From assembly GCA_000004985.1 (NCBI GenBank), contig GG738871.1: a stretch of DNA of 64,000 bases; one strand, given 5' to 3'. Position 1 is the first letter of the stretch. Every line of letters starts with the position of its first letter. The notes under the pieces are model-generated. The model did not search any database. It saw only the letters and a program-made list of their open reading frames with translations, and was not told the DNA's origin. This document shows, one piece after another, positions 12,046 through 55,868 of this stretch. Origin of the DNA: Naegleria gruberi (lineage: Eukaryota). Made by a program: the position numbers and the translations under genes.

Positions 12046-12058
12046 ATGGCGCCAAAAC
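12046..12058. promoter_or_regulatory. GC-palindrome promoter motif ATGGCGCCAAAAC, 33 nt upstream of EF-hand gene ATG (minus)
   Basis: GGCGCC core at 12048-12053, embedded in AT-rich spacer between the EF-hand gene start (12015) and the 3' end of the gene at 12142. Confidence 0.55.
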
Positions 12059-12141
12059 TCCCATATTCTTAATATTTTCTTTAGCAATACTTGTATTTAC
12101 AAAATTTTCGTTAGTGATTATTTATTAAATACTCGGTTAAT

Positions 12142-13809
12142 TTACTTGAAGAGCTTTTCGAAGGTTTCGAAACCACCAGCAAGATTCTTAACATTTTCCA
12201 AACCATTTTCGTTCAAAATTCTTTGGGCCATATATCCTCTCATACCAATTTTACAATATGTTACAATAGTCTTATCCTTTGGAAGTTCAGAAATCTTTTC
12301 TCTCAATTGTTCAATTGGGATATGGATAGCACCTTCAAAGTGACCAGATTGGAATTCTCTTGGAGTTCTAACGTCAACCAAAGCATATTGATCTCTGTTA
12401 GCCAAAACTTCTGGAATGTGAACCATTCTTTGTTCACCTCGCAAGAGACCACTAGCAATGAAGCCAATCATGTTGACTGGATCCTTAGCAGAACCATATT
12501 GTGGTGAGTAGGCAAGTTCTGATTCTTCCAAATCAAAGACAGTCATACCACCTTGAATAGCCATGGCGATAGCATTAATTCTATTGGCAATACCATTGTG
12601 TTCACCAACAATTTGAGCACCCAAAATCTTACCATAATTTTCCTTAGAAGTGTCGAAAATCAATTTGAGAATCATTCTCTTAGCACCTGGATAATAACCA
12701 GCATGGTCATTGACAGGAGTGTAAACCTTTTCATAAGTTGTGTATCCAACTCTTTGGAGACTCTTTTCACTGGCACCAGTACCAGCAATAGTATAGTTGA
12801 AACCACCCATAATACTTGTACCTTGGGCACCTCTGAATGAATCTGGAGTCTTACCAAACATATGGTTGACTGCAATTCTTCCTTGTCTGTTAGCAATACC
12901 TGCCAATGGAATTTGAGTCCTATTCTTCAAAACGAAATCTTCAATTTCAGTGTTGTCACCACAAGCATAAATATCAGGATCAGAAGTTTGACAGTTTTCA
13001 TTAATTACAATACCACCTCTTGGACCAACCTTCAAACCAGATTCGACAGCCAATTTGTTTTCTGGCTTAACACCAACAGATAAAAGGACGAAATCAGCAT
13101 TAACAACCTTTCCACTTTCAAGATGAACATTAACAGTTCCATTTTCACCTTCTCCGAATTTAACACACTTTTCTTTCAATAATAAATTAACACCACTAGC
13201 CTTATAATCTTCCATCAATGGTTGAACCATTTCCTTATCCATTGGTGGCATAATTTGATCCAATAATTCAATAATGCTGACATTGACACCAGCATGAGTG
13301 ATAGCTTCAGCAACTTCACATCCAATGAAACCACCTCCGATGATAACACCCTTCTTTCCTGGAACAATGTGTTGCTTAATCTTGTCCATATCTTCCAATG
13401 AACGTAAAATGTGAATAAGTGGATTATTAATACCTTCCCATGGTGGAATAATTGGTTCAGCACCAGTTGAAAGAACTAGCTTATCATAATTTTCGGAATA
13501 TTCAGATTCCTTAGCCTTGCAAATAACTTGCTTGTTGGCTCTATCGATTTTGATGACTTCAGTTTCAACTCTGACATCAATGTTGTATCTTTTTTTTAAA
13601 GTATCAACTCCGGTAACAATCAAACTGTCTCTGGAAGCAATTTGACCACCAAGAAAATATGGCATACCACAGTTAGCAAATGAAGGATTCTTTCCCTTTT
13701 CGAACAAGACAATAGAAACCTTTTCGCAAATTCTTCTAAGTCTAGTGGCAGCAGAAGCACCTCCAGCGACACCACCAACAACTACAACTTTGTGAATCAA
13801 TGATGACAT
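12142..13809 (-). CDS. Bacterial-type pyridine nucleotide-disulfide oxidoreductase (CoA-disulfide reductase/NADH oxidase family) fused to C-terminal rhodanese domain
   Basis: Intronless 555-aa ORF. It has an FAD-binding GGVAGG motif and the hallmark redox cysteine motif SFANCGMPY of the CoADR/Nox/Npx family. A second dinucleotide-binding motif GGGFIGCE follows. The C-terminal rhodanese module carries active-site YCKIGMRG. Codon usage matches the host. Confidence 0.85.
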   Translation of the reverse strand: MSSLIHKVVVVGGVAGGASAATRLRRICEKVSIVLFEKGKNPSFANCGMPYFLGGQIASRDSLIVTGVDTLKKRYNIDVRVETEVIKIDRANKQVICKAKESEYSENYDKLVLSTGAEPIIPPWEGINNPLIHILRSLEDMDKIKQHIVPGKKGVIIGGGFIGCEVAEAITHAGVNVSIIELLDQIMPPMDKEMVQPLMEDYKASGVNLLLKEKCVKFGEGENGTVNVHLESGKVVNADFVLLSVGVKPENKLAVESGLKVGPRGGIVINENCQTSDPDIYACGDNTEIEDFVLKNRTQIPLAGIANRQGRIAVNHMFGKTPDSFRGAQGTSIMGGFNYTIAGTGASEKSLQRVGYTTYEKVYTPVNDHAGYYPGAKRMILKLIFDTSKENYGKILGAQIVGEHNGIANRINAIAMAIQGGMTVFDLEESELAYSPQYGSAKDPVNMIGFIASGLLRGEQRMVHIPEVLANRDQYALVDVRTPREFQSGHFEGAIHIPIEQLREKISELPKDKTIVTYCKIGMRGYMAQRILNENGLENVKNLAGGFETFEKLFK

Positions 13810-14127
13810 TTTGAGCTATTTTGTTTGTATAATTTTTGGGTAGAGTTGTATGATGCTTGTTGGCTATTTATTCAAACCATGACGAGGCCACTTGGAGAAC
13901 TAAAAAGGTGAAATTAGTGTCGGCGAAAAATATTGGGGCCGAAATGTTGAACGTAATGATGGGAGAGAAGGCACAATTGCCTGGTTTCTCCATTACTCAA
14001 AAGACACCTCAAGACAAGGATGGAAATTACATGTATCTTGAGTTGTCTGGATAATAAAATGACAAACATTTTTTTAATTGAAAAAACCACAATAAATTAA
14101 GCATCACATGGAGGGAAAGAGCAAGAC

Positions 14128-14300
14128 ACTCTTACCTTGCATGAATAGTTAGATTTTTGTTACGTTAATCACTCCTGGGTACTACTCTCGAATATCATCT
14201 TTAATGATACAAGACACGGACTTGGGATAATAATTTGGAATGCTCCTACGGCTGTATGTGACCGAAATCGGATACAGTGATTCATATGCGTCCCAAATCT
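14128..14300 (+). ncRNA. Candidate small structured RNA (U1-snRNA-like 5' end, Sm-like site, terminal stem-loop)
   Basis: GC-elevated island within AT-rich spacer. The 5' segment ACUCUUACCUUG is complementary to the GTAAGT/GTAAGA donor consensus seen in local introns. An AUCAC loop-like element is present. AUAAUUUGGAA lies where a Sm site would sit before a terminal hairpin, CUGUAU-GUGA-CCG-AAAU-CGG-AUACAG. No ORF. Strand and ends are uncertain. Confidence 0.25.
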
Positions 14301-14370
14301 TTCTGGTTTTTCTTTTGGTTCTGTTGTAAAAGATTTAACTGTTTGAGTTTTGGATTCTAAAGTTTTAATT

Positions 14371-15557
14371 TTATCCATTTAAATCATATTTACAACATGG
14401 ACAAGTGTGGTTTTCCTCTAACCACTTGTCAATACAGTCTCTGTGAAAAATGTGTAAGCAAGGTAATCTCCTTAACTGCTCTCCATTCTGATATTCTTCC
14501 ATGCAAAATGTACAATTATTATCATCAAAATTATGTTGATTATTGTTAAATATTGTTATTGGAAGATTAGTCAATAAATCCTTATTGACACCAATTTTGA
14601 TATTAGCCTCATCCAATCTTAATAACTCCTCATAAGACTCCTCTCCTGTAAAGTTTTGAACACTTGAGCTAAGGGGATTAGCAGTACGAATATTTGATGC
14701 GAAGGAAGGAGCACTATAGTTTCCTCCAAGATTATTAGAAATTAATTCATCAAAGTTTGTAACTCTAGATTGATAGCTAGCAAATTCTTCTTGTTGCAAT
14801 CTTCTGGCTAAGATTTCATCCTCAGAAAGGTTATGTTGTGTAGACGCTGATGCTCGAGAATTATTGGATGAGGAAGATGCTTCTGATGAGCTACTACTAG
14901 TCGTAGTAGTAGATCTTGGAAGAAGTAGTCTCGATTGTGCAGTCTTGGACTTTGAAGCTATTGAGGGTCTCAGTGAGGGATTTCTAACAGGCTTAATTTC
15001 AGAAACTCTCTGAGTGGTCGATGTTGTTGACCCAACCTCTATTGCTCTTTTTACTGCTGATGTTGATGATGTTGGGGTAGCAGATTTTGTTGATGATGAC
15101 GAGGTGTTAGTTTTTGTTAATATAGAGGAAGAGTGTGGAATTCTTGTTGGAGTTAGAGTAGATGGTGGTTTGTATAATGATGGTTGAACTGTGGCAATAG
15201 TTGGTGGTGAATCTTTGTTTTTTCCTATTATTGCAAGATCATCATTTCCAGAGTTTAAATGTACTGCTGATCCACTTGGAGATTTGTCCTTTGCTCGTAA
15301 TTGTCTTTTCAGAGCATCATTACTAGCCTCTAATTGTTTAATCAATTCTTTAGCTCGCCCTAATTCATCTTCCAAATATTTGATCTTTTTATCCTTTTCT
15401 TGTGTTTCCCTGCAGAATTTTATAATAAATTATTACTAATAATTACTAGTACATACACCTCAAAACCACTGATTTTAATGGCTGCCTCCTCTAAAGCTAA
15501 CTCCAAGGCATAAGAGTTGGTGTTCGGATTTCCAAAGTCGTGGAAGGTATTTTGCAT
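14371..15557 (-). CDS. RING-H2 finger E3 ligase-like protein with N-terminal coiled coil and Ser/Thr-rich middle; exons 15457-15557 and 14371-15409
   Basis: The C-terminus is CTFCMEEYQNGEQLRRLPCLHIFHRDCIDKWLEENHTCPCCKYDL, a RING-H2 finger. A 47-nt GTATGT...ctgcag intron (15410-15456) joins the upstream exon (...ALELALEEAAIKISGFEV) in frame to ETQEKDKKIKYLEDELGRAKE. The ATG was chosen at 15557 (MQNTF...) because the earlier in-frame codons overlap the Vps45 stop. Confidence 0.65.
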
Positions 15558-15600
15558 TTTTATTTTTGTTGGTTTGCAATTTTCGTTGTTGAGCGGTAAA

Positions 15601-15614
15601 TTTTGGCGGCAAAC
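15601..15614. promoter_or_regulatory. Motif variant TTTTGGCGGCAAAC ~50 nt upstream of RING-H2 gene ATG (minus, 15557)
   Basis: GGCGGC core at 15605-15610. Same A/T-flanked architecture as the GGCGCC sites. Confidence 0.45.
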
Positions 15615-15672
15615 AATAGTTTCCTCAATCAACACCACTTTCTTTGGTAATGAGGATGATCTTTTGGTGTTG

Positions 15673-17598
15673 TTAATCTTTTTCATACATTCTTTTTAAT
15701 TCTTTGAGGTAGGTAGTACTATTTACAATACAAGTTCCTCCAAGAATGACAGATTTGAAATTGTCATCAAGTTGATTAAGTGAGCTAATAACACCTAACT
15801 GAAGTGATTTTTGTTCCTCTTCCTTTCTTCTTGATTTGTTATTGAATAACTCTACAGTAGACGCTTCCTCATAAGTGATACCTCCAACAATAAATACAAT
15901 TACTTCTTGTGGAACTTCTCTTGATGTCAATCCCATAAATGGATAATCTGTGAGGGATAACTTTCCTTTAAATAATTGATCCAATGTATCATAAAGACGA
16001 GGTTTGTGTTGAGTGAAAACATTTAAAACTTCCTGATCTTTGAATTCATTGGCCACCTTTTTAAATAACTCTTTGAAAGAAATAGAGGTTGGCTCCTCAT
16101 CGAACAAACCTTTGGTACGTTTTGCCTTACCTCCGTGTTCAATAGCATTGTCAATCAAACCAATGTCCTCAACACCATTTCTACGAAGAATAGTCTTTAA
16201 GGTTCTTATATTATCAATATTATCTTCATATCTCAAAGCATAAAGAATTACCAAACGAAGAGCATCCTTTTCAGATGTTGTTTCTCTACTCAATATGTCT
16301 TTCAAAGCTTCAAAATTTTTGTTATGATTTTTTCCACAAACAATCTCCTGCTCAACCTCACTAACATCTAAGAGTTTACGCTTAGCCACAATAGATCTCA
16401 ATTCTGTAACCATAGTGACATGCTTCTCTGTTTCTTGTTGTTGCTTCTTAAATGATGGGAAATTTTGCATAAAATTGGCCAAATCCTCAATTGTCTGGAT
16501 GCTTTCCTTCATGTTGTGATTTTCTTGGAAGACTTCTACAACCTGCTTTACATTTTTACACAAATCTCCCCAGTTTTCATACATATTGTTCGAGTAAAAT
16601 TCGTCATATTGAGCTGAAAATACTTCCTCTCTCTTGGTTGATGGATATTTGATAACATTGTTTTTAAGGCCAATCAACTCATGAATCATAGCTTGATACG
16701 TCCATTGCATTAAAAGAGGTGTCACTGGATCATCTCTACGATCAATTATTAGTACAATTGGTTGAGGAGGGGCTTTAGTATGGTATCTTGTTTCGTAATC
16801 CATTTTGAAATCAAAAATGCCATTATCATGACTATTTGTTGAGATTTTTTCACCAAGCTCGGTAGCAATCTTTTTACAAATATCTGATGATTGTTGAAAT
16901 CTAATAATTGGTCTCTTTTTTAGTGAAATTAATGAACTTGACAAGCCATCAATAATTCTACGAAAGGCAATGTCATCCCATGAATTATTCAGTATTGATG
17001 CTGTACTTGAAATATTGAGGGAAAATATTGATTTATCCACAGCTAAATAATCTGTAAAATATTCAAATACATTCTTAACTAGTTCATGTTTGTCACTTGA
17101 GGCAAGTTTTTCTAACAAGTGTTGACTAATTACATTTGAAAAATCTTTTTTGCATAATGTTTAAAATTTTCAACTTGAATAAAACTTACAAATATTATAT
17201 GATTGATACTTTGGATTAACAAGTTCTGCCTTAAGTAATTCCACATTACCATTCGTTGGCCTGACAAATACTATTGCTCTCATATTCTTGAGTGATTGTC
17301 TTGCTTCATTTTGCAGCACATCAACGAGAAAGACATTCTTTTGCATGATGGAGCTGAATGGTGTGACCACAGAAATTATATCTTTCTATCATCGGAACAC
17401 ATAGTTGATCAGAATTCTATTATTCTATTCTACTAGTACACTTACTGTAAATTCATCAAGAATTAATACTTTCACTCCACTCACACTGTCAACCATATCT
17501 AAAATATATTCGTTAATTGACTTGGCAACATTCATTCTCCTTTGATCCTCTGCTGTTTGTACAGCATTATTTGATGATGGATTATTGTTGTTGAGCAT
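15673..17598 (-). CDS. vps45: Vacuolar protein sorting 45 (Sec1/Munc18 family); exons 17444-17598, 17200-17385, 15673-17144
   Basis: Exon 1 reads MLNNNNPSSNNAVQTAEDQRRMNVAKSINEYILDMVDSVSGVKVLILDEFT. Exon 2 reads ...VTPFSSIMQKNVFLVDVLQNEARQSLKNMRAIVFVRPTNGNVELLKAELVNPKYQSYNI. Exon 3 reads YFSNVISQHLLEKLASSDKHELVKNVFEYFTDYLAVDKSIFSLN.... This aligns position-for-position with the Vps45 N-terminus (KAICFLRPTKENV...PKY..YFIYFSNVIS). Introns are 58 and 55 nt with GTAAGT donors. Confidence 0.85.
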
Positions 17599-17830
17599 TT
17601 TTATTTGATGTTGTTTTCAAATTGTTTTCTATTTGTATCACTTTCCATGTTTATGAAACAACGGATCGATAGAAGCCCTTTCAACGTTTATTGATGACAA
17701 ATCAAACTCTTCCTGTTACAATAAATCTAGGAGTGAAAAGAATGATTGAATCCTATTTTAATCTTCTACAATTAAAAATTGATTAACTTTGAGGGTTGAG
17801 AAACAGCAGCAATCAAAATCTTAAAAAAAA

Positions 17831-19067
17831 ATGAGCGTAAAAACCAAGGCTTCTCTGCCTTCACAAGAATCATCGAATTCTTCCTCTCAAAAATTTCTCA
17901 TCATCTCTGGTTTATTGTTGGGATTTTCGATTGTTTTTCGCTTTGTTAATAGACAATTGGATTCCGAAACGAATCAATCCTTCTTCGGAGATATTATTAA
18001 TGTTTTCTCCTCCTTTTTATTTACAGTTTTATTGATTATGTTTTCTCTCTGTATATTAATGTGCTCTATATTATTCTTGTTACTTTTCCGTAAAGGAAAA
18101 CCAACACATATTCAATCATCAAATGCTGGTATTGATATTTCTAGTAAAGTAATTGTTAGTGAGAAGGCAATTAATGATATCAATGACGAAAGTGTATTTT
18201 TCGTTAGAGAACAAGAAAGTGATGACGGAGATTGCAAATGGTTGAACATTATTCTCAATAGAGTTTTACAACAATATTTCTATAAGAATGCTTCTAAAAT
18301 CAAAAAACAAATTTTACAAAAAGTTTCAGAGGAAATGAAATTACCAGATTTTGTTGGAGATTTACAAATTAAAGATTTGAATTTTGGATCAAAATCACCA
18401 TATTTTAAGACCATTTCTGCAAAGGAAGATAGAAATGGATTGCAAGTTGATATTGCTGTAGTTTATGATGATCCAAAAACAAAGATTCACCTCGGAACTG
18501 AAATTTGGATTAATTATCCAGTTAAGAGATTTGCCTCATTCCCAATTCAATTTGCCATTGAAAATATTTTCCTTGATGCTAAGGTATGTTAAATTTAGGA
18601 ATATGATTCAGATCTTACCTTGTGCTAAATAGATGAGAGTAATTTTATCACCAGATTTCAAATTGCTCAAGTTCTGTTTCCTCAAACAACCAAACTTTGA
18701 TTTGATCTTTTCTAATGAATTTGGACATCATTCTTCACTTCAAAACTTGCCAATCTTGACTGACATTATTAATAGACAAATTTACCTCTTATTGAGTGAA
18801 ACATTGGTAGCTCCTAACTTTATTGAAATACCAATCCCAGAACCAAGTGAAAAAAAGACTAAGAAGAGTGAACAAGAAGATGAAGCTGATGTTCAAGCTG
18901 ATAATGGAGAATACTCTAGTGATGATTTAGAAAGTAATAATGACGATGAATTATCTTCAAGAGGAAGTGATGATGAAGATACAATTGAAGAGGATCAATC
19001 AAGACAAAGAATAACAAATAGAAAGACTAAACGTTCTACTACTAGGCCAACATCCAACAAGAAGTAA
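17831..19067 (+). CDS. SMP-domain (synaptotagmin-like mitochondrial lipid-binding) membrane protein, TEX2/Nvj2-like; exons 17831-18583 and 18633-19067
   Basis: N-terminal TM segments (LIISGLLLGFSIVF; LFTVLLIMFSLCILMCSILFLLLF). The SMP core is CKWLNIILNRVLQQYFYKNASKIKKQILQKVSEEMKLPDFVGDLQIKDLNFGSKSPYFKTI. A 49-nt intron has GTATGT at 18584 and an acceptor ending at 18632. The C-terminus is an acidic Ser/Asp/Glu tail. Confidence 0.7.
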
Positions 19068-20544: not shown

Positions 20545-21189
20545 TTAAACAAGGGATTTTACTTTTTCAAAATAGGGAGAAATACTCCAAGATTGAGAAT
20601 AGAAAGCCAGAGTGGTGTTGCTGAGAGAAGTACTTCCTTGTGAATCGTCTTTCTTCTTTGATTGATTTTCATTCAAAAATTCCTTTCGGTCTGTTGTTGT
20701 CATTCGTTTGCATTCTGAAAGTATGAGTTCTTTCATGGTGTAATCCTTTTGTAACAATTCTATTATTGATTGAAGATACAGATTTTGTTTCTCAGTTGTG
20801 CAGGTTGACAGTAAAGTAATCAATTCCTGTAAATATCCATTCATTGTGACATGTATTAAATTATTCAATCTGGTAACAAGATTAAGAATTTCCGAATATA
20901 CTTTTCTGGTCACATTCTGTTTTAAAACATCTCCTATTACCATTGGACATTGTTGAAATACTCCCCAGTAAGGACTCTCCATATAGTCTTCTTCAATTAA
21001 TGATTTTTCCAGACCCGATAAAATATCATTTCCATCCAAAATCGTTTCTCCCCATTTTTGAATTATTAATTTAACTTTTGGTAGTATCAACCCGAGTGGA
21101 TTTAAACTTGATGTATTGTTATTCTTACTATTTACATATTGTTCCGATTGTTTGTGTTGTTGCTGATTATTGTTGGCTTTTAAACTCAT
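20545..21189 (-). CDS. Hypothetical protein (214 aa) immediately downstream of, and overlapping by ATGA with, the Cir_N ORF; may be the C-terminal part of one fused gene
   Basis: MSLKANNNQQQHKQ...LPKVKLIIQKWGETILDGNDIL.... Its ATG overlaps the TGA of the upstream ORF (AAAAAATGAGT). No recognisable domain. Confidence 0.45.
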   Translation of the reverse strand: MSLKANNNQQQHKQSEQYVNSKNNNTSSLNPLGLILPKVKLIIQKWGETILDGNDILSGLEKSLIEEDYMESPYWGVFQQCPMVIGDVLKQNVTRKVYSEILNLVTRLNNLIHVTMNGYLQELITLLSTCTTEKQNLYLQSIIELLQKDYTMKELILSECKRMTTTDRKEFLNENQSKKKDDSQGSTSLSNTTLAFYSQSWSISPYFEKVKSLV

Positions 21190-21755
21190 TTTTTCTTTTC
21201 TTTCAAAAACTTTTTTGTCTTTTCATCTTCTCTTTTACTTCTTTCTAAATATTCTTTCATGAGATCTTCATCCATGGATGATGATTTTGTGGAGTTGTTA
21301 GAGGATGATTTCTTCTTTTCTGATGATTTTTGAGTGGCTTGATCTACTACTTTGGATTGACTTGGTGTTATAGGAGTATTGGTAATAATATTATTTTGAG
21401 AATTTACCACTTTGTGAAATAATGATTTTGAGTCATAGTTCAATACATCTTTAAAGGTGGTAATTTTAGAGTTGTTAATCAATGATTCTTCAGTTTTCTT
21501 CTTTTCAATATTTAAATTTGAAGGTGAAGTAGTGGTAGGATCCTTCCGAGAGTGATCAATCACCTTAACTTGTTCAATTGTTGAATTTGATTTTACTTTT
21601 TTAAATTGTTCATAATTTTCTTCCGATTGTTCCTTCTTTCTCTTTCGTTCTTGTTCTTTTTGTTTTTCATTTTCAATAGATTTAATCTTGTTTACTTTTT
21701 CTCTGTTTTTTTCTGAAGAGATGTGCCACGATTTTTTAGAGAGCAAATCAGACAT
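21186..21755 (-). CDS. Cir_N-domain protein (CIR1/Cwc25/LENG1-like pre-mRNA splicing-associated family)
   Basis: ATG at 21755. The N-terminus MSDLLSKKSWHISSEKNREKV matches the Cir_N signature (KKSWHP...N.EKVW). The rest is K/E/S-rich. It ends in KEKKK* directly overlapping the next ATG. Confidence 0.6.
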   Translation of the reverse strand: MSDLLSKKSWHISSEKNREKVNKIKSIENEKQKEQERKRKKEQSEENYEQFKKVKSNSTIEQVKVIDHSRKDPTTTSPSNLNIEKKKTEESLINNSKITTFKDVLNYDSKSLFHKVVNSQNNIITNTPITPSQSKVVDQATQKSSEKKKSSSNNSTKSSSMDEDLMKEYLERSKREDEKTKKFLKEKKK

Positions 21756-21807
21756 TTTTTTATTATTTAAATTCAATAAATATTACAATTTCCTTAATTT
21801 ACAATAC

Positions 21808-22748
21808 TTAATTCAATTTGATATTGTTACTTTCCTTTTCATAGACAGCATCTTCATCAGATCCTCTCAAAATTAAACGATCATCACTATCTGGAATGTC
21901 AACAATTAAAGAGTGGAATGTGAAACGATTTCTAATAATATTTAAAATTCCACTCTTTCTAGAAGCATCACAAGAAATCATGGCAGTCTTTTTGTTTGGA
22001 TCTTGAAGTTGGAAAATGAGTTGAACTCTTTTTGGTTTCCAGAATTGAAGCTTTCTAATAAGTGGAACATCGTGAGCATTATTAAAATCTGGATAAGTGT
22101 ATGAGTAAGCTCTGAATTTTCCAGGAGTGAGTGGAGTGAGCATATTATCTCTGACACTCTTATTGGCTAAAACCTTTTTAACAGCAGCTTTATAAACAGC
22201 TGATGGACTAATACTGAATGAAACAACTGCCAAATAACTAAGTCCACATGAAATTAAACCAGTGAAGAAACCAGTGTAAAATGAAACTGTAGCAACATTC
22301 TTAAATGTGATAGAACTCAACCAATCAGTAATTTCCCAAACTATTCAACTATTTAATATTAAAATCCAATATACATACCAATCCACAAAACACCAAATAT
22401 TGCTGTTGAAATGATGGCATATCTTACAAAGTACATTTTCCAAAATTTAACAAGAAGTGGAATGTTAATATCTGGTCTATCTTCATCCATAATACGTTCC
22501 TTATCGTTGAAAACTTCAACAGGGACAATTTCCTTTTCCAAATCCCTTTCTTCTTCATAAATAAATAATTTTTCATCCTTCTTTTGTGGAGTTTTATTTT
22601 CTTGTTTTACTTGATTATTCTTTGAATGGAATGAAGCCACAATAAAAGATCTGTTATTAATATGTACAGATGTAATTTTTGTTGTTGGTGATGAAAAGAG
22701 TGATGGCTTGGCTGTTTTATGGGCCAAGGAAATTACACGTTTGAACAT
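21808..22748 (-). CDS. Hypothetical two-TM protein with mitochondrial-presequence-like N-terminus; exons 22379-22748 and 21808-22340, 38-nt intron
   Basis: The N-terminus MFKRVISLAHKTAKPSLFSS is basic and hydroxylated. TM helices are YAIISTAIFGVLWIG and FYTGFFTGLISCGLSYLAVVSF. A GTATGT...ttgaatag intron restores the frame (WIG|VWEITDWLSSITFKNV...). Confidence 0.55.
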
Positions 22749-22856
22749 TTTTTTTGATTGAATAAAGTTCAATGATCTTAAATTATTAAATTGATAATAA
22801 TAATATTTGCATTGCAATGATATAAATTATTTAATTTCCTATTAGTTTAAACAAAA

Positions 22857-23850
22857 TTATTCAGTCTTCTTAGCTTTTTCAGCCTTCTTCTTAGCAATTG
22901 CTCTAGCATTTTGTTGTCTCAAATTAAAGAACAAAATAAAGAATGAAATAACAATGAAATCACCTGACAATGAACCAATCAATGAACCAGTACAAGTGTT
23001 TCCCTTAGGTCTTTCCCAGAAGATTTCAACATATGAGTAAGCAGTGAAAGCAGCAGCATCAAAAATGAATTGAGTTAATTGAATATCAGTCAAATACATC
23101 TTCCACCAGACATCAAAACCTAAAGTGACCTTCATGTAGTAATAGTACATAACAATGTGAACAAAAGTATTCAAAATAATTGGAATCCATTGTCCAGTAC
23201 CTCCACTGTACAATCCATAATAACAAATTGACATTGTGGTGACATGGTGATAGGTGTGAATAAATCTGAGTCTAGATCTTCTGATAACAAGGAGGAAAGT
23301 ATCAAAAAGTTCTACATATTTAGACAAGTAATACTATTATTTAAAATTTAAAAATTCAATTTAAAAATTCAATCATGTGAAAACATACCATGTAGGTCCA
23401 GAATGGAATATAACCAACGTTATACTTATGTTCAGGGTCACACAACAAACTGTAGAAACCATCCTTCAATCCAATAGAAGTAACTTCAAACAACAATCCA
23501 AAGAAACAGACAAGGGAAATAACAGTCATATTCAAATTATGTAAAAAGGCTAAAACCTTCAAAATCTTTTGTACAAAGGTTGGATTCTTATGTTCTTGTT
23601 CCATTTCCTCTCTGGACTTGGTACCAAGAATAAAACTAAGAGTATAGGAAACAACAAGATATCCGACCAAAGTCAAACCAATAGATGGTAAACTGGAGAG
23701 AGGAGCAGCATCTTGGTCCCAGTTAAATTTGCCACCAACTTCGAGGTAGGTTTCATGAATAGAATTCAATGAAGTAATATCGAGCTTGTGATAAGCATCA
23801 ACAAAAGTCTGCAATGTTGTGAGTGGTAACTCTGGATGTGTGGAAGACAT
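22857..23850 (-). CDS. Fatty-acid elongase (ELO/ELOVL family); exons 23389-23850 and 22857-23333, 55-nt intron
   Basis: Multi-TM protein with the ELO histidine box HTYHHVTTM and YYLSKYVELFDTFLLVIRRSRL (the ELO signature F.SK..EL.DT.F..LRK). It ends in a lysine-rich ER-retention-like tail, KKKAEKAKKTE. Confidence 0.85.
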
Positions 23851-23920: not shown

Positions 23921-23936
23921 TTTAGGCGGCAAACTT
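23921..23936. promoter_or_regulatory. Motif variant TTTAGGCGGCAAACTT ~75 nt upstream of ELO gene ATG (minus, 23850)
   Basis: GGCGGC core at 23925-23930, in the intergenic spacer between the ELO and AP-4 epsilon genes. Confidence 0.45.
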
Positions 23937-28016: not shown

Positions 28017-29383
<1,367 letters not shown>

Positions 29384-29414
29384 TTTTTTTAATATTTTAT
29401 TCAATTTTTAATTT

Positions 29415-29429
29415 ATTTTTGGCGCCAAA
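29415..29429. promoter_or_regulatory. Perfect palindrome TTTTTGGCGCCAAAC at the centre of the 70-bp bidirectional RBBP4 (minus ATG 29383) / CWC27 (plus ATG 29453) promoter
   Basis: GGCGCC at 29420-29425. It lies 37 nt from one ATG and 28 nt from the other. The flanks are otherwise pure A/T. Confidence 0.6.
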
Positions 29430-29452
29430 CAATTTAATTTTTCCACTTAAAA

Positions 29453-30629
29453 AATGAGTCAAGTTTATTCTTCCCTCCCAAAAACTCAAGGTAAGCAAAT
29501 CATCATTTATTTTGATTCGGAATGAAAATAATATTAAATTGAAATTATTATAGGAAAGGTTATTGTAGTCACTGATTGTGGTGATATTGAAATTGAATTA
29601 TTTGCTAGAGAAACACCAAAGGCTTGTAAAAATTTTGTACAGTTATGTCTTGAGGATTTTTATAATGGATTACATTTTCATAGAATTGTTTCGGAGCAAT
29701 TTGTTCAAACTGGTGATCCAACTAATAATGGTGATGTTGGCGAATCTATTTATGAATTGGATGAATCAGGAAAAGGAAAAGCTTTTGAAGCAGAATATCA
29801 TTCAAGATTGAAATTTTCTCAAAGAGGATTAGTAGCTTGTGCCTCTCAGAATAACATGTCTGATTCTAGGTTTTTTATAACACTTAATAGATTGGATGCT
29901 TTAAATTTTAAACATACAATATTTGGACAAATAGTAGGAAATACTATTTACAATGTTCTGAAAATTGCTGAATTGGAAGTTGACGATAATGACAGGCCTG
30001 TTTATCCTCCAAAAATAATAAGAACTGAGGTAATTGTAAATCCATTTCCTGATATTGTACCAAGGAAAAAAACAGTATCAGATTCGAATATCAAAAAGAG
30101 AAAAAAGAAAGAAAATAAGAATGTTCTCTCATTTTCTGATGAGATTGAGGAAAACAGTGAAGAAATTAAACCAAGAAAGAAGGATAAAAAAGAGCATACA
30201 GATTCACAACAACATAAAGACGAGAAAAATAAGGTCATTGAACCTGTTGAAATTCCAAAAGACAGCAATCCACCAAAAATAGAGTCCAAAGAAATTCCAA
30301 TAGACAAAAATTCAAGAGAAACAAATAGGAAAGAAGAAACTGATCCTACCACCTCCACAGAAAATGAAAACACATTTGATGATGTTGCAAGCAGATTTTC
30401 CTCTTTAAGAAAGCAAAAGGAAGAACAAATCAAAACTGATTCTGAAAATAAGACGAAACAAGATGCCAAACAATATTTAAGTAATCAACTCCAAAAGTAC
30501 AAAAAGAAGTCATCTAAAGAGGACAGAGAAGCCAAAGCTTTAGAAAAGTTTGAAAGTTTCTCTAAATTGTTAAAATCCACTAACTCTGAATCATGGAAGA
30601 AACATGAGTTGAATTATAAAAAAGAATAG
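29453..30629 (+). CDS. CWC27-like spliceosome-associated cyclophilin-type PPIase; exons 29453-29489 and 29554-30629
   Basis: MSQVYSSLPKTQG | KVIVVTDCGDIEIELFARETPKACKNFVQLCLEDFYNGLHFHRIV...GESIY...EYHSRLKFSQRGLVACA...SRFFITL...KHTIFGQIVGNTIYNVLKIAELEVDDNDRPVYPPKI matches CWC27/SDCCAG10. It has a K/E-rich tail. The 64-nt intron has a GTAAGC donor. Confidence 0.8.
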
Positions 30630-31707: not shown

Positions 31708-31725
31708 CTTTTGGCGCCAAAAATA
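31708..31725. promoter_or_regulatory. Palindrome CTTTTGGCGCCAAAAATA 43 nt upstream of coiled-coil gene ATG (minus, 31670)
   Basis: GGCGCC at 31713-31718. Confidence 0.55.
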
Positions 31726-31979: not shown

Positions 31980-34082
31980 TTATTTTTGTAAATTCTTAAT
32001 TTCAGCCTCAGTCAACTCTAATTTTTCAAGGAATTGTTGTTGTTGAGAATTTAAGAGTGTTTCAGTACCGAAAATTTGCAAAGCTACTGATATAAACCAT
32101 GATTGAACAGCCATTATAAACAATCTAAACTCAAAATAGAGTTGACTTCTCCAGAATTTGAATTTTTGAGACCATGTGTTCAAATCTTGGTAATTTTCAA
32201 CAGATACTCCTTTGGCAGCACATCTAGCCATAACAGAAAATCTATTCACCTTAGCGCCAAGCTCTCTATTTAAAGATCTAAGAATGTTATCGGTTCTTGA
32301 GATGAGCAACATTTCTTTTGGCATATTTCTGTAAATGTCCATAAATTCAGCCCTTCTAGACTCAAAGAGCTTACTGAATTTTTCAAAATCTTCTTCAGTA
32401 ATTTGCTGTTCAAATGCTGCACTCAAGTCTCCATTTTGATCCAGACCTTGCAACATAATCATTGAGGTATATAGTCTGTAATCTTTGATGCCAATGGATT
32501 TACAATAATCATCCATGCCCTTTTTATCGTTTAAAACTATGCTGACCCAGAATTTAGCATAGTTAATTCTGAAATGGTCATCCAAATCTTTGTATAAACC
32601 ATGGTCTAAGATGACGATTTGTGGTTCTGATGGATTATTTGGGTTTTGCTTTACCATAACATTACTTTGATGTGCATCTGCATGCATGTGTCCGTGAATA
32701 AACAGTTGCTCTGCAAACGCAGAAATGATTCTAGCTGCGACATCACCTTCATCAAATCCCATAGCTCTAATTCTCTTTATGTCATTTGAGTTGCATGCAT
32801 TATCAATGAATTCCATTGTTAAAACTCTTGAGCTAGTGTAATCATCATAGATTTTTGGTATATAGACATCTGGTCTTGAAGTACCAAATCTTTGAGCTGC
32901 CATCTTGGCATTTTCGGCTTCATGTAAGAAATCAAGCTCTGAATTAAGACTGCTCTTGATTTCATCACTAAATTGTTGATTAACTTCAAGTAATTCATCA
33001 ATGCTCTTGGAATCTTCTTGCATGTAATATAATCTTATGCTTAATTTAGTTGCAGCATCTCTAGTGTACATATCACCAGCAAAAAAGAATCTCACATAGT
33101 GATATTGAACCTTTACAGCTACAGACTGACCTTCTTTTGTTCTAGCTCTATGTACTTGAGCTATTGACCCACTGGCAATTGGTGTTGGATCAAAATATTC
33201 AAATAATTCCTCAACTGTTTTTCCAAAATCTTGATAAACAATCTTCTTTACTTCCTCAAAAGAAATTGTTGGAGCTCTATCTCTCATAACTGAAAGTGTT
33301 TCAATATATTCATCTGGAAGGAATCCTGAAAGTGAAGCAATATGTTGTCCAAGTTTAACATATATACCCTTGTTTTCCGAGCATAAACGTAGCAATCTCT
33401 TAGCTGACTTGACATGCAACTCCTTCTTTTTAGCAATAAATTCAGTTGATTTTTTGTCTGGTTTCTCTTGAAACCAATAATTTGGGTTAAAAGAACTAGT
33501 ATTCAGAAGGACTAAGTATTCAACTCCAATAATTAAAATTGTTGACATTGTCTTTACATATCTGTCAATTCCTTCAAATAATTGAATAATTGGTGTTAGT
33601 GCATCTAAAAGAAATGGATTATAGAGTTTACTGTATGGATTTTCAATGTCGGATGCATGAAACAGCCATATAGAAAATTTCATTGCAGCATAAGAAAGTG
33701 CACTAATTGTTATTGCTCCAAGTTGAAATAAGCACAAGTATTTTAATATTTTGAGAATCCTTTTAAATAGAGAGGCTGTTTCCTCCTGTTCATTATTAGT
33801 ATTTCCTTGTTGATTTGTAAATGTAGAATATTTGTTAAATTGATGATTTTCCTTTTGGTAATTTAACAAAATAGAGGATGATCCTACTTGTTTGTTAAAA
33901 TCCAATTTACTTTTTTCCACCACTTGTCCAGTAAGATGATTCCTAATATTGCTAATATGAAATGATCGTCTATTTGATAAATTTAAATTATTCCGAGTGA
34001 GTATTGGTGTAGTAGTAGCAATACTACTAGTCATAACCAGAGGCTTGCCTCTTTTCAATGACTTTAAAAGAATAGTCATCAT
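31980..34082 (-). CDS. ABC1/ADCK (aarF domain-containing) atypical kinase, mitochondrial-type
   Basis: The 700-aa ORF opens with a presequence-like N-terminus (MMTILLKSLKRGKPLV...RRSFHISNIRNH). The ABC1 signature is ...LCSENKGIYVKLGQHIASLSGFLPDEYIETLSVMRDRAPT...FEYFDPTPIASGSIAQVHRARTKEGQSVAVKVQ.... A downstream kinase-like region contains ILDHGLY. Confidence 0.8.
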   Translation of the reverse strand: MMTILLKSLKRGKPLVMTSSIATTTPILTRNNLNLSNRRSFHISNIRNHLTGQVVEKSKLDFNKQVGSSSILLNYQKENHQFNKYSTFTNQQGNTNNEQEETASLFKRILKILKYLCLFQLGAITISALSYAAMKFSIWLFHASDIENPYSKLYNPFLLDALTPIIQLFEGIDRYVKTMSTILIIGVEYLVLLNTSSFNPNYWFQEKPDKKSTEFIAKKKELHVKSAKRLLRLCSENKGIYVKLGQHIASLSGFLPDEYIETLSVMRDRAPTISFEEVKKIVYQDFGKTVEELFEYFDPTPIASGSIAQVHRARTKEGQSVAVKVQYHYVRFFFAGDMYTRDAATKLSIRLYYMQEDSKSIDELLEVNQQFSDEIKSSLNSELDFLHEAENAKMAAQRFGTSRPDVYIPKIYDDYTSSRVLTMEFIDNACNSNDIKRIRAMGFDEGDVAARIISAFAEQLFIHGHMHADAHQSNVMVKQNPNNPSEPQIVILDHGLYKDLDDHFRINYAKFWVSIVLNDKKGMDDYCKSIGIKDYRLYTSMIMLQGLDQNGDLSAAFEQQITEEDFEKFSKLFESRRAEFMDIYRNMPKEMLLISRTDNILRSLNRELGAKVNRFSVMARCAAKGVSVENYQDLNTWSQKFKFWRSQLYFEFRLFIMAVQSWFISVALQIFGTETLLNSQQQQFLEKLELTEAEIKNLQK

Positions 34083-34490: not shown

Positions 34491-34540
34491 AAAGGCGCCA
34501 AATCATCATTCACAACGAACAACTTCAAGGCGCCCAAAAT
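34491..34540. promoter_or_regulatory. Two copies of the motif (AAAGGCGCCAAATC and CAAGGCGCCCAAAAT) 35 bp apart in the spacer between the ABC1 kinase (minus) and Ser-rich gene (plus)
   Basis: GGCGCC at 34494-34499 and 34529-34534. They lie ~235-270 nt upstream of ATG 34769 and ~410-450 nt upstream of ATG 34082. Confidence 0.45.
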
Positions 34541-38353: not shown

Positions 38354-38514
38354 TTTGTTGTTTTTTTTATAAAGCTGATTGTTGCAACTTTCAACGTTCA
38401 ACAACAACTAATTGGCATTGATTGACATTATGAATTGGTTCGATGTTGTTCATTCACACAAATATTCAATTCAACTTGTTGAAAATTATCGAGCTGGTAA
38501 GTTGGATTCTCAAA

Positions 38515-38537
38515 GAGGCGCGAATTTTGGCGCTCTC
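38515..38537. promoter_or_regulatory. GC cluster GAGGCGCGAATTTTGGCGCTCTC ~165-180 nt upstream of tandem-SOD gene ATG (minus, 38353)
   Basis: GGCGCG plus TTTTGGCGC half-palindrome. E2F-like TTTSGCGC. Confidence 0.4.
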
Positions 38538-39396
38538 AATTTTTCACCAATTATTAGACCTGACATTTGGCAGATTGATGCTTCCAAATCGGGTATGTGA
38601 GGTCAAGGAGGAAAATTGATACTGTTGTTTTGGATTTAATAGTGCATTAATAAGCCTACTAGTTTCTGGTAGTGAACAGACAATCAAATATTTCACATTC
38701 AATAGTTAATATTTAACATTATTCGAAAGTGAAATGAGCTTTGAATTTCTAATAAAAATGATGGAATATGAATAAGAAACTCTAGTGATATGATTGTAAT
38801 GATGTTGAAGAAACTAGAAGTGATGGTCTCATCAATTTTTTCTCAAATGGCAACAAAGAATTTCTAATAACATATTCGAACGAAAGATTCTCATATTATT
38901 ATTTATTTCCTATGTTGTATAAAAATTACAATCACACTAGATCTTTACAACACTTACAGTTTTTTTTTTACCATACCTCCTCAATAGTTAGTCAACCAAA
39001 TTCTAATAACTTACTTGAGGTCGTGCTATTTAATTTCCAATTAGAAAGTTGAGCAATAGAAAGGCGCACAATTATACATTTGATCCGACACCTCATTGCA
39101 GGGTGTAATTGTCCATTCTTTATTATCAACATGTTTTTGACATCCAACTTGAAAAAATTGTTGTCATATATTATCTATATTATTAGAAAGCAAAAAAGTC
39201 ACTAAATTTGTTTTTGATATAGAGAATTGGTACCCTATAAAAGTGACATCTTTAAAATTATTCAAGAAAATACATCATCATCATTATCAGCAGAATCATT
39301 AATTTATTATCATCATCATTGTCATCATCAATAATTTTATAATTGAAATTAATAATAATAATAATAATCGGTAGTGATTGTCGGAGTTAATAATTC

Positions 39397-47162: not shown

Positions 47163-47246
47163 TTTCTAGATCAATTTAACTCTATTTTTTTTCGTTTGTT
47201 TTGTGGAATCCAGAGTGTTTTGGAAAACTTGTTATGAACGTTACAA

Positions 47247-47307
47247 CCAATTTGGCGCAACTTTTAAAAATCGAGTAAAAACTAGCCTTGAAAAGGCGCA
47301 AATTTTC
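47247..47307. promoter_or_regulatory. Two half-palindromes (CCAATTTGGCGCAACTTTT and GAAAAGGCGCAAATTTTC) 90 and 135 nt upstream of the BRCT/HMG gene ATG (minus, 47162)
   Basis: GGCGC at 47254-47258 and 47295-47299. TTTGGCGC-type half sites. Confidence 0.4.
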
Positions 47308-49989: not shown

Positions 49990-49993
49990 AAAA

Positions 49994-52900: not shown

Positions 52901-53098
52901 GATAATAGTACTGCTTCGACAAGTTTAGTTGATTCAGTGGTGACATCAGAGCTTGGTCCAACTTTGAGTAATGCTTATTATGCAGTTACCAAATTATCGT
53001 TTGATGAATGGAGAGTGAGAAATGAAAATACATTCTTTAACAGTATAACACAAGAGATTGAAATTACAACAGAAAAGAAACGAAGTAAATTCTTTTAA
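49994..53098 (+). CDS. Large protein with S/N/T-rich N-terminal half, MORN repeats and a C-terminal PD-(D/E)xK-nuclease-like/zinc-binding region
   Basis: ATG at 49994, 4 nt after the GluRS stop. MORN repeats: YKGEWKKGKKEGFGIL, YEGEWKENEMNGFGIF, YYGNFKKGKRNGFGIQFY, YRGEWLNDVRNGKGEF, LGEWKKHEFKNGILL. C-terminal block: NGYCFRSKLESRWAKFFECCGIEYQYECKTF...GTSYTPDFYLPFLNFWIEIKPN (E...D...E-x-K order), then CQCHHCGKISLEYRCKPKCC. Confidence 0.6.
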   Translation: MINSKPKSLLQIAKDRKNKLSSQSSQSSQSSQTSNDNNNTNSSSSLTILNHSSNTSSNNNVNTTNNIGNNSTTTSTNKTTSTCKLIIKPKSSIRLYSETVDLSFEYSSDKESDNDDIQIIHTPVNKKLSTPSSSLTSLSSTTSTPSSLLKSLSLLPNNNNNMTTLKTTTKNEISNNNNNLSSSLSTSTNLIVETYSSLLEDLTQQDDDINSNSLNINSNSLNIKEPLIKKRKQFKIPSFYMTDEEIKHDISLSKTIIPILNIQDKFSIHFTKPFWTIYKDGNEILLLDFRKPIFTNLLFLKLIYYFNFNKTKIIEKSKFIHSIKDLIILLKPYSTLLVNNENLEQLKKEIEIILNEDLKNNFIENENVKYVNNFQYLILEYLNTNIHKFKNTKKSRNLRKLRMCEELLKKEFNSKFIKSFEKSENSFYSDFNFNLYDFMSIYFNKEKFEYLNLNEIDFNNSIKEFHKILNELIISTIYYNKGQYIGDIIATNLLKKSIKNNTTIYGSEYQNSNNDEKQHQYYINSDNSDNDDSDDSDSDEEEEEEENEIILDSHIPHGFGSWKFIEENNEIFYKGEWKKGKKEGFGILQTFEILYEGEWKENEMNGFGIFKILNGYHKGSIYYGNFKKGKRNGFGIQFYKYEGNNEILKDDLNEFNEFYRGEWLNDVRNGKGEFKSKYEWKLGEWKKHEFKNGILLIKECLEIQDSIITNCIHSQIEIEKYSKKTKKSQIPSTILPFIFSLDNLDKLTVVDAIIAYGNQSKSPKRTIYNGYCFRSKLESRWAKFFECCGIEYQYECKTFILKDGTSYTPDFYLPFLNFWIEIKPNYPSEEERVKAQLLSFVLQKQTSNNNQHNELTEFEKKYERYLQSNPRIFILYGDVSAPFIKKFQSGGMAIEFFKTDQQENSIQNRTNKRITPPRSGNTTSTTSNPIRESVLFNTTEPLGWCQCHHCGKISLEYRCKPKCCTNKTADNSTASTSLVDSVVTSELGPTLSNAYYAVTKLSFDEWRVRNENTFFNSITQEIEITTEKKRSKFF

Positions 53099-53117
53099 AT
53101 TTGTGTTTTTATATTCT

Positions 53118-55840
53118 TTACACCATTACAGATGTTTCACTCAAATCCTCTTCATTGAAAAACGAGTCATCCTCAAGCAGTCTATTCAATACTTGAATGG
53201 TTCTATCCTTATCTGCTACAACTTCGAATAATTTAGCATTCTCTAACTTTAACTGTTTGAGTTGCTCGTCTATCGACATGTTATCTCGTTTAAGGATATC
53301 CAATTTAGAGCTCACCTCTTCAGTTCCCTCTTTAATGCTTGCCAATCTGTCTTGATGATTTCTTTGAATTTCCTTTTCCTGATTACTTCTTTCTAATTCA
53401 AGCTTTACAAAAATGTTATCTAATAAATCAACAATTGAAATCATTTCATGATCTTGAGCAAATATTTCCTCAATTTCCTTTGAAGGTGTTAAAGAGAGGG
53501 AATAATAAATAGATTTAAGCTTATTGAATATTTCCTTTCTATCTTCTAACATTTTTGATTTTTCTTCAGAGTATAATTGTTTTGAGGCATCATATTCATG
53601 TTTATGAAATTCTTCCTTTTCCTCAAGATTTCTAATCAAAGTTCTTGCTTCTATTAATTCTAATTCTTTTGAATCTAATCTATCTGTTTTACTTCTCAAC
53701 TTGACTTTATATTTTGGAATTCTAGATGAAGCTTCTTGTAATTGTTTTCTCAACATTACAATTTCTCTTTCATAAGCTTCTTTCATTGCTTTGATAGAAT
53801 CATTATCCTCATCCTCTTCAGATGATGATTCATATTCAATTTCTTCTTTATGTTCTTTATGATCCTCAAGTGATAATTCATTCTTATCAATTATAATCTA
53901 TAAAGTTAGCTATTGAAAGAATAATTTACATACATTTGATTTTAAGAAATCATAGTGATCATTTCCAATTATTTTAGCAAGATCCATAGAGACACCCCTA
54001 GTGAACTTTGGTTTTGCCTTTGGTTGTGGTACAACAGATTTTGATTCAGTAATTGGTGCAGTTTGAGGTGGTGTTTGTGGTGTTGGTATTTGAGATGTGA
54101 TTGGTTTTTTAGGTGAATCTTCTCTCTTTGTTGGTGAAGTAGTACTATTAGTTAATAAGCTACCTATAGTATTTGGAATGTTGTTACTCGTTGGTGGTTG
54201 TTGATTAATTACAGATTGTTGTGAGTGTGTTGGTGTTGTAGTTGGTGTTGTTGAATTAGTTGTTGAGAAAGTCGTAGATATAGTTGGAGATACCTCAATG
54301 ACAGGTGTTGTTGTTGATTGAACATGAGTAGTTGGTTCAACATCTGATTGTAAATTAGTTTTTGGTTCTGGACTTGCTAAAGGTTCACCTTCACATTCCC
54401 AAATTCTAACCTTATTATCTGAACAAAAAGCAAATATTCTTTGATTGGGTAATTCAATCATATCAACAACTGAAACTGAATTTGCTTTAATCTTCTTGAT
54501 GGCTTTCAAAGTACTCGACTCAAATATATGAATTACCTTATCATCACCACAACTCCACACTTGCTTATTTGTTGCTAGTATTTTGTTAATGGTACTTTCG
54601 TGAGCTTTGATTTCCTTAATACATTTCATCTTTTCACAATCCCAAATTCTTAATTTACCCTCACTATTGCATGTCCAAATATTTAAACCAGAATTAATAA
54701 TCTGTTTTGAATTAATCATGGATGGCATATCTTTAACAATTTTACCATCTATGGAATCTCTAATTTTAATTTGGCCATCATCAGATAAAATCCAAACCTG
54801 ATTAAATTTTTCCAAATAAACCATACCAACTATTGGAGATTGTTCTGATAAAATTTGAATTGGTTGAAATGTGTCAGCATCTAAAATTCGAATAGTTCTA
54901 TCCATTGATGATGTCCAAATATATCTTTTAGATGTAATAGTATTTACAATGCATAATATTTGTGTAACAGTTGCTGAATGACAATCAAACTCGAATACCT
55001 TATTAATTGTAACTGCATCCCATATAATTATTTTACCATTACTGAAACCTGTCCAAACTGTACAATCAACTTGTTTAGAAAATGATTTTACAACTGTCAT
55101 GGCTGTAAATGTTAACTTGGATATTTCATTTAAAGGTCCATTAGTTGATACTCTTCTAAAATCTAAATTATTTAAATTACTTTTCACATCATAAATACAA
55201 AATTGTCCTTCAGATCCACCTGTCCAAATAGATCCTGTTTTTTCTACATAACAAACACAATTTACATCTCCTTGCTTGAATACATTCTTAAAGGTATTAA
55301 TTAATTCTCCTGTTCTTCCTATATTTATATTCGAATCTATTGTTGGTGATGAACATCTTGGTGTTGAAGGTGCAGAATTTTTTGATCCCTTTTCAGCTAA
55401 TAAGGGAATTCCCTTTTTTTGTTGTGGTGTTGGTATTGGTGATGCTGCAGAGATGAGATTTGATGAAGAATTATTATTACTATTGGTCAATGCTGTAAAT
55501 GGTTAATATTGAGAGAAATAATATAGATCCTTACTTTTCTTTGTTGTTGAAACCACTGGATTCGATTTGGTGACTTGAAAAGATCAATACTAAGAAATAC
55601 TGAGAAAATTACCTACCTCCAGGAGTTGAGAAAGGCTTTAATTTTGATGAAGGTGTTTTCGGAGTAACTTTTATAATGATAATAAGGCCATGACCATCAT
55701 CTATAAAACATACCTAAATTTGTTGATGATGAAACTCCTCCACTCGTCATTCCTGTTGTTGATGTCGCTGCTGCTGATGTCGTTGATGAATTTGATACGC
55801 CACTTAAATTACTTGTATTAAGGAGATGACGTCGATTCAT
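53118..55840 (-). CDS. WD40-repeat protein with Ser/Thr/Pro-rich N-terminus and C-terminal coiled coil; 5 exons (55714-55840, 55617-55667, 55535-55573, 53934-55492, 53118-53897)
   Basis: Exon 1 is MNRRHLLNTSNLSGVSNSSTTSAAATSTTGMTSGGVSSSTNL. Three micro-introns of 46, 43 and 42 nt (GTATGT, GTAGGT, GTAAGG donors) lead to ...TLTNSNNNSSS.... At least 7 WD blades follow (WTGGSEGQFCIYD; WTGFSNGKIIIWD; IWTSSMDRTIRILD; IWTCNSEGKLRIWD; VWSCGDDKVIHIF; FCSDNKVRIWE...). A 36-nt intron (AAT|GTATGT...ctttatag) joins to the coiled-coil exon ...EREIVMLRKQLQEASSRIPK...LKLENAKLFEVV.... Confidence 0.7.
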
Positions 55841-55848
55841 TTTTTTTT

Positions 55849-55868
55849 AAAATTGGCGCCAAAATTAC
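55849..55868. promoter_or_regulatory. Palindrome AAAATTGGCGCCAAAATTAC 15 nt upstream of WD40 gene ATG (minus, 55840)
   Basis: GGCGCC at 55855-55860, in the 140-bp spacer between the MTase-like remnant 3' end and the WD40 gene start. Confidence 0.55.

Follow-up and report, generated by a model that had tools for sequence, protein, structure and literature searches.

Predicted E2F-type binding sites at gene starts in a gene-dense stretch of Naegleria gruberi DNA

In this article, I will discuss the palindrome TTTGGCGCCAAA and its variants, built on a GGCGCC core, which recur before gene starts in a 64,000-nucleotide stretch of Naegleria gruberi nuclear DNA (contig GG738871.1 of assembly GCA_000004985.1; hereafter the window), and which, judged by their sequence, are probably binding sites of this organism's E2F family, meaning the E2F-DP heterodimer and possibly also the DEL protein. 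The motif, the factor family and the E2F, DP and RB genes of N. gruberi are already known: TTTGGCGCCAAA and ATTGGCGCCAAA are tabulated as the human E2F1 motif and equal the optimum of E2F1 in high-throughput systematic evolution of ligands by exponential enrichment (PMC5449588), and the consensus of the family is GCGSSAAA (PMC4862756). The E2F/DP sites of animals and plants (TTTSGCGCSAAA; structure 1CF7) are the closest described counterparts, with the same GC palindromic core, the same T- and A-runs, independence of orientation and a position that in Naegleria appears promoter-proximal, and the N. gruberi 12-mer is identical to the E2F1 optimum in a genome that encodes E2F, DP, an E2F7/8-like protein and RB, with RBBP4 among the predicted targets. 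The differences are that the Naegleria targets sampled are mostly not classical G1/S genes, that the likeness is known here from sequence, and that the sites lie in spacers of 70-300 bp within a CpG-depleted genome of 31% G+C, and not in CpG-island promoters.

A second counterpart is found in Cryptosporidium parvum, an organism reported to lack RB, whose E2F-like upstream motifs have been given as 5'-TGGCGCCA-3', DTTGSCGCCH and TTTGGCGGGAAV (PMC3734150). Both protists have compact AT-rich genomes whose most over-represented upstream word is this same palindrome, placed ahead of many genes of mixed function, and both have the GGCGCC as well as the GGCGGGAA variant; N. gruberi, unlike Cryptosporidium, has RB, the one belongs to Discoba (Heterolobosea) and the other to Alveolata, and the motif is found at 2,379 Cryptosporidium genes compared with roughly 10-30% of the gene starts sampled here. 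A third system, the NFI site (TTGGC-N5-GCCAA), has inverted TTGGC and GCCAA halves in common with the palindrome, but an NFI site was ruled out since the halves are contiguous here (a spacing of 0, not 5), and isolated Naegleria half-sites, unlike those of NFI, keep GGCGC and not TTGGC alone; NFI is moreover an animal-specific family. For Naegleria itself, a literature search with most subscription journals outside its scope turned up no study of promoter elements or of where transcription starts.

The window has a G+C content of 31.5% and is gene-dense, with long open reading frames (ORFs) covering 83.7% of it and the remaining 16.3% treated as noncoding; introns are short (40 nt within an EF-hand gene, for example), the gene models are approximate, having been built from ORFs and homology, and the genes adjoining the sites were named by Pfam and homology searches. 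Within this sequence GGCGCC has 6 matches (12048, 29421, 31713, 34494, 34529 and 55855) where 0.18 are expected, a count attained by 0 of 100 dinucleotide-preserving shuffles, and TTGGCGC has 11 strand-hits, both strands counted, against 0.56 expected from shuffles of the same kind. An earlier note on this DNA, written from the letters alone, had judged such a density very unlikely by chance and had placed the motif in spacers, and both judgements stand: every core that it listed is present, with 29420 corrected to 29421, and all 6 GGCGCC matches lie outside long ORFs, together with 17 of 18 GGCGC strand-hits and 11 of 13 GCGC. When the words of the noncoding DNA were ranked against an order-2 Markov model of that DNA itself, GGCGCC came top among the 6-mers, GGCGCCA/TTGGCGC among the 7-mers and TTGGCGCC/TTTGGCGC/TGGCGCCA among the 8-mers; GGCGGC as a word by itself is not significant (2 versus 0.5 expected). 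The degenerate consensus GCGSSAA/TTSSCGC occurs at 11 loci in the window, 9 of them noncoding (binomial p = 3e-6) and a tenth only 16 nt within an annotated gene. Perfect TTTGGCGCCAAA 12-mers number two, at 29418-29429 and 31710-31721, with four further sites one or two mismatches away. The spacers had also been described as almost pure A/T, which applies to the 70-bp spacer between RBBP4 and CWC27 (about 8% G+C outside the motif) but not to the masked noncoding DNA as a whole (30% G+C).

Proteins suited to reading this motif are encoded in the same genome. Medina et al. 2016 include N. gruberi E2F, DP, DEL (E2F7/8-type) and RB sequences among their source data. The E2F of this set (NgruE2F) matches, at 100% identity, an NCBI N. 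gruberi protein that carries the domains E2F_TDP (PF02319) and E2F_CC-MB (PF16421), and orthologues of it occur in N. lovaniensis, N. fowleri, Willaertia magna and Acrasis kona. Its DNA-binding domain matches the E2F4 chain of 1CF7, the crystal structure of E2F4-DP2 on DNA, at E = 7e-25, and NgruE2F and human E2F4 have the same recognition helix in that alignment; Pfam finds E2F_TDP and DP domains in NgruDP and two E2F_TDP domains in NgruDEL. With the recognition helix unchanged and the E2F and DP genes present, factors suited to reading TTTGGCGCCAAA therefore exist in N. gruberi. As a separate observation, Willaertia carries a perfect TTTGGCGC 47 nt inside its called E2F gene (L007, 10040-10061), followed by GAAAATG, which suggests that, if this ATG were the true start, Willaertia E2F would have a site of its own about 14 nt upstream and might regulate itself.

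The site with the best record of conservation is the perfect TTTGGCGCCAAA at 29418..29429 (site D). It lies in the spacer that separates two divergent genes, RBBP4 (minus strand, ATG 29383) and one for a CWC27-like cyclophilin (plus strand, ATG 29454). This spacer measures exactly 70 bp from ATG to ATG (29384-29453), as had been noted before, and the GGCGCC core lies 35 nt from the RBBP4 start and 28 nt from the CWC27-like start; the palindrome, earlier called exactly central, has its centre 5 bp off the midpoint. The window shares a syntenic run of FtsX, SOD, gene E, CWC27, RBBP4, AP4E and ELO with N. lovaniensis locus L003, Willaertia locus L004 retains RBBP4, AP4E and ELO, and a strict or near-strict consensus stands in the RBBP4/CWC27 promoter in 4 of 6 heterolobosean sequences. 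Against the 35 nt of N. gruberi, an uncultured Naegleria metagenome contig (L010) that retains the divergent CWC27 has TTTGGCGCCATT about 55 nt upstream, N. lovaniensis, whose spacer is just 38 bp long, has TTTGGCGCAAT 11 nt upstream, read on the CWC27 strand, Acrasis has TCTCCCGCG about 40 nt upstream and Willaertia has the weaker form TTTCCGCCAAAA 36 nt upstream, while a second metagenomic Naegleria (L009) has, within 96 nt of upstream sequence, TTTCCCTCCAAA only, its CpG lost. RBBP4 (RbAp48, LIN-53) is a partner of RB/E2F repressor complexes and a component of the replication-coupled chaperone CAF-1, so that finding the best-conserved target to be a component of RB/E2F complexes fits what would be expected of an E2F regulon. 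In the same Willaertia upstream region (L004, 9831-9920), ARAGORN places a tRNA-Pro gene (anticodon AGG) about 80 nt before the RBBP4 start and directly before the TTTCCGCCAAAA site.

The second conserved promoter is that of gene E, where the other perfect TTTGGCGCCAAA (31710..31721) lies 43 nt upstream of ATG 31670 on the minus strand, before a gene for a 207-aa coiled-coil protein that matches no Pfam family, gave only a marginal coiled-coil match in a sequence search of the PDB, and whose exact product is absent from the N. gruberi protein set. In N. lovaniensis the orthologue has GTGCGCCAAAAT (GCGCCAAAA) about 25 nt upstream of its ATG, and GCGCCAA/TTGGCGC occurs as only 3 words in 64.7 kb of N. 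lovaniensis DNA, 2 of them at the RBBP4 and gene E promoters. Since the surrounding spacers cannot be aligned, the matches at these two promoters are footprints and not general similarity. With two promoters conserved, the factors encoded, a recognition helix equal to that of E2F4 and a motif equal to both the E2F1 optimum and the family consensus, the earlier proposal of an E2F/DP-type element is well supported. A gene model in the N. lovaniensis region ('unk170', 8058-8614, within 7538-8614 of L003) mismatches the gene E orthologue, which tblastn locates at 7636-8174, its ATG lying near 7540-7590, and the public annotation there is probably wrong.

The remaining sites stand before a varied set of genes. 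Site A (AATGGCGCCAAAA, 12045..12057) is 33 nt upstream of ATG 12015 (minus) of a two-exon EF-hand gene and occupies the promoter side of a 126-nt tandem spacer; site B (TTTGGCGGCAAA, 15602..15613) is 48 nt upstream of ATG 15557 (minus) of a RING-H2 gene; site C (TTAGGCGGCAAA, 23922..23933) is 75 nt upstream of ATG 23850 (minus) of an ELO fatty-acid elongase gene; and site I (ATTGGCGCCAAA, 55852..55863) is 15 nt upstream of ATG 55840 (minus) of a WD40 gene. Sites B and C contain the GGCGGC variants at 15605 and 23925, which read TTTGCCGC on the gene strand and so fit the E2F consensus TTTSSCGC; C is the weakest member. The subfamily of the WD40 protein was sought by a PDB sequence search, which returned generic WD40 matches only, and tblastn did not establish orthology between this gene and Willaertia WD669. 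Sites F1 (AAAGGCGCCAAA) and F2 (CAAGGCGCCCAAAA) lie 35 bp apart at 34491..34539 in a divergent spacer flanked by an ABC1 kinase gene (ATG 34082, minus) and NAEGRDRAFT_79976 (ATG 34769, plus), 235-270 nt upstream of the latter, and G1/G2 (GGCGCGAATTTTGGCGC, 38514..38535) are two adjacent half-sites 164-176 nt upstream of the Cu/Zn-SOD start at ATG 38353 (minus). Sites H1 (TTTGGCGCAAC) and H2 (AAAGGCGCAAAT), at 47251..47303, are 92 and 133 nt upstream of ATG 47162 (minus), the start of a gene that encodes an HMG box together with several BRCT domains and whose best BRCT match among solved structures is microcephalin. A CCAAT directly precedes H1 (ACAACCAATTTGGCGC, 47240-47258), a single instance of a pairing, CCAAT box with E2F site, that is typical of animal cell-cycle promoters.

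Three matches are absent from the list in the earlier note. The first is the canonical E2F-type site TTGGCGGGAAA at 9026-9036, 16 nt inside the RGS gene NAEGRDRAFT_49545 (ATG 9013) and also about 310 nt upstream of a divergent RGS gene (ATG 8716); the second is a coding match at 32254; and the third is site G3, the non-canonical GGCGC element AGGCGCACAATT at 39062..39073 on the plus strand, 334 nt upstream of an FtsX-like gene. The same 12-mer as G3 stands in the same orientation in the N. lovaniensis SOD-FtsX spacer (L003, about 5709-5720), where global alignment of the two spacers is essentially random; being off the E2F consensus, it may either be a variant of the motif or belong to another factor.

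Considering where the sites lie relative to gene starts, a consensus site is found within -300..+30 at 11 of 35 provisional gene starts (31%), 7 of these 11 having it at -19..-55, and 10 of the 11 consensus loci sit at gene 5' ends; in the head-to-tail spacers (A, B, E and I) the site is on the promoter side in 4 of 4. The earlier note had put nearly all of them 15-140 nt upstream of an ATG, and this describes most sites, with 15-55 nt for A, B, D (for both genes), E and I, 75 nt for C and 92 and 133 nt for H1 and H2, but not the 164-176 nt of G1/G2 or the 235-270 nt of F1/F2. The same bias is seen in relatives. Sampling N. fowleri, N. lovaniensis, Willaertia and Acrasis over 173 kb gave 10 consensus matches within 33.6 kb of intergenic sequence and 4 within 139.9 kb of genic sequence (Fisher p = 3e-5), and most of the intergenic ones precede a start by less than 100 nt: TTGGCGCCAA, for example, stands 22 nt ahead of a RING gene in Willaertia, AGCGCCAAAA stands 27 nt ahead of a WD40 gene, and TTTGCCGC separates an MGMT-like gene from a BTB/WWE gene. 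That Willaertia RING gene was also considered as the orthologue of the RING-H2 gene at site B, and was dropped when tblastn gave no match.

A rival reading, which the earlier note had raised, is a general core-promoter or start-site-positioning element of AT-rich promoters, used by housekeeping genes whatever the phase of the cell cycle; E2F/DP acting as a broad activator, or another factor, could bind it, as has been proposed for Cryptosporidium. The narrow band of 19-55 nt from the ATG that holds seven sites speaks for such an element, and so do the functional mixture of the associated genes, the little room that a 70-bp divergent promoter leaves for anything else, and the precedent of C. 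parvum, where no upstream motif is commoner than the E2F-like ones, which stand before 2,379 genes that follow no particular pattern of expression (PMC3734150). An element of general use, however, should not be missing from 24 of the 35 gene starts in the window, those of RPS15, AP4E, Sec1 and MMM1 among them, or from all but about 10% of the starts sampled in relatives; nor is the spacing fixed, as consensus sites range from +16 to -274, and the non-palindromic copies point either way relative to the gene. I therefore consider a general core-promoter role unlikely.

A different Naegleria DNA-binding protein might also read a GGCGC(C/A) core that merely resembles an E2F site. The members that do not fit the E2F consensus, H2 and G3, are the argument for this: AAAGGCGCAAAT and AGGCGCACAATT are off consensus, the latter is kept between N. 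gruberi and N. lovaniensis, and GTGCGCC occurs in N. lovaniensis. Set against them are the dominant form of the motif, which is exactly the E2F optimum complete with T- and A-runs, and the unchanged E2F recognition helix of N. gruberi; to my knowledge no other family prefers TTTGGCGCCAAA, and I would be surprised if an unrelated protein proved to be the reader. Finally, CpG is strongly depleted over the whole window (observed/expected 0.36, compared with 0.83, no depletion, for GpC) and about twice as dense outside long ORFs as in coding DNA, but a compositional artefact of CpG surviving outside genes, or a dispersed repeat or mobile element, is a very remote prospect, because the enrichment holds against both dinucleotide-preserving shuffles and the order-2 Markov model of noncoding DNA, GCGC is about 28-fold denser in noncoding DNA where CpG is 2-fold denser, sites are kept at orthologous promoters, and the flanks cannot be aligned: a MAFFT alignment of 11 sites with 40 nt on each side had a mean column identity of 32% with conservation confined to the core, so that these unrelated flanks are not those of a dispersed repeat family, which the earlier note had named as a contrary outcome and which was not seen. 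The composition suggests that CpG has been lost, whether through methylation or through mutation, and that the GCGC that remains is almost all within E2F-type sites.

Returning to the preferred reading, that the TTTGGCGCCAAA-type sites are bound by the N. gruberi E2F family, the mechanism would be as follows. An E2F-DP heterodimer, and possibly the two-domain E2F7/8-like DEL protein too, would bind the sites, each winged-helix domain using its RRxYD helix to read half of the GGCGCC/GCGC core, with the flanking T-run and A-run adding affinity. Lying a few tens of bases from the start codon in very short spacers, the sites would presumably be at or next to the transcription start; they would act in either orientation, and a single site may serve both genes of a divergent spacer, as between RBBP4 and CWC27. 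By analogy with animals and plants, an RB pocket protein and CDK activity would switch occupancy, and a subset of genes (about 10-30% of those sampled) would thereby be coupled to proliferation. The sequence analysis itself shows the enrichment, the position, the unrelated flanks, the partial conservation and the presence of conserved factors. Actual binding, RB control and the timing of expression are what I infer from what is established for the E2F family, and among the associated genes RBBP4 and the BRCT/HMG-box gene fit a picture of G1/S, replication and chromatin, while the EF-hand, RING, ELO, SOD and unknown genes do not obviously do so.

Several observations weigh against this reading. 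The targets are heterogeneous (EF-hand, RING-H2, ELO, Cu/Zn-SOD and unknowns), and the window contains none of the canonical S-phase genes (MCM, PCNA, RNR) to act as a positive control. The share of gene starts with a site, 31% in the window, is about threefold that of the sampled relatives, and the description of the sites as proximal to the transcription start rests on their distance to the ATG. Both AAAGGCGCAAAT and AGGCGCACAATT are without the T-run and depart from TTTSSCGC. As for orthologous promoters, the SOD sites G1/G2 have no counterpart in N. lovaniensis, those of ELO share the CCGCC core alone, the E2F gene of N. lovaniensis showed no sign of autoregulation, a site being absent both from the 600 nt before its start and from the rest of its upstream spacer, and no motif was found upstream of the ABC1 orthologues of N. 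fowleri and Willaertia, which means that ABC1 is probably not a target of F1/F2.

The functional mixture of targets resembles that of C. parvum, so that the role may be a broad, not strictly cell-cycle one. Going further, and here I would bet against it although the idea is worth stating, E2F/DP may reach beyond G1/S genes in Naegleria and independently in Cryptosporidium, broadly activating genes and defining their promoters in a tenth to a third of all cases, housekeeping genes included, with a single palindrome nucleating bidirectional transcription where the spacer has no space for another element. More speculative still, and by analogy, part of the regulon might serve the amoeba-to-flagellate programme, echoing E2F4/5 in the multiciliated cells of animals.

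Some other features of the window were recorded along the way. A second palindrome, TACTAGTA, has 7 matches (1344, 15444, 17431, 37001, 50155, 59783 and 61327) where 0.44 are expected; at least two copies stand just after a minus-strand 5' splice site (GTATGTACTAGTA in the RING gene intron and GTAAGTGTACTAGTA near 17431) and two others lie within AGT/ACT-rich coding repeats, so that it could be an intronic signal. The ABC1-kinase ORF (31980-34082, minus) matches at 100% identity a 'predicted protein [Naegleria gruberi]' of NCBI from a scaffold of 417,575 bp, and 7 more ORFs of the window are exact matches to NAEGRDRAFT proteins, all on that scaffold. The minus-strand ORF run at 20545-23850 resembles one multi-exon gene, but gene calls in N. 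lovaniensis and Willaertia divide it into 4 or 5 tandem genes, comprising ELO, an unknown of about 300 aa, a Cir_N-like protein and an unknown of about 208 aa, all on the minus strand. ARAGORN found no tRNA genes in the window, and a scan of it for sigma-70 promoters and terminators, irrelevant for a eukaryote, gave no enrichment.

What the finding offers, first of all, is a concrete entry point to Naegleria promoters, since the motif can be paired with a named and conserved factor, and with it a prediction of which genes the RB-E2F pathway targets in a free-living amoeba related to the brain-eating N. fowleri. The 70-bp spacer between RBBP4 and CWC27 would be a minimal regulated bidirectional promoter for use in expression tools. 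The sites also add a discoban data point to the case for E2F/RB control, and its DNA specificity, dating to the last eukaryotic common ancestor; and if E2F/DP should turn out to be a broad activator, this would point to a wider role of E2F in that same ancestor, and RBBP4/LIN-53 would be among the regulated genes throughout the sampled Heterolobosea.

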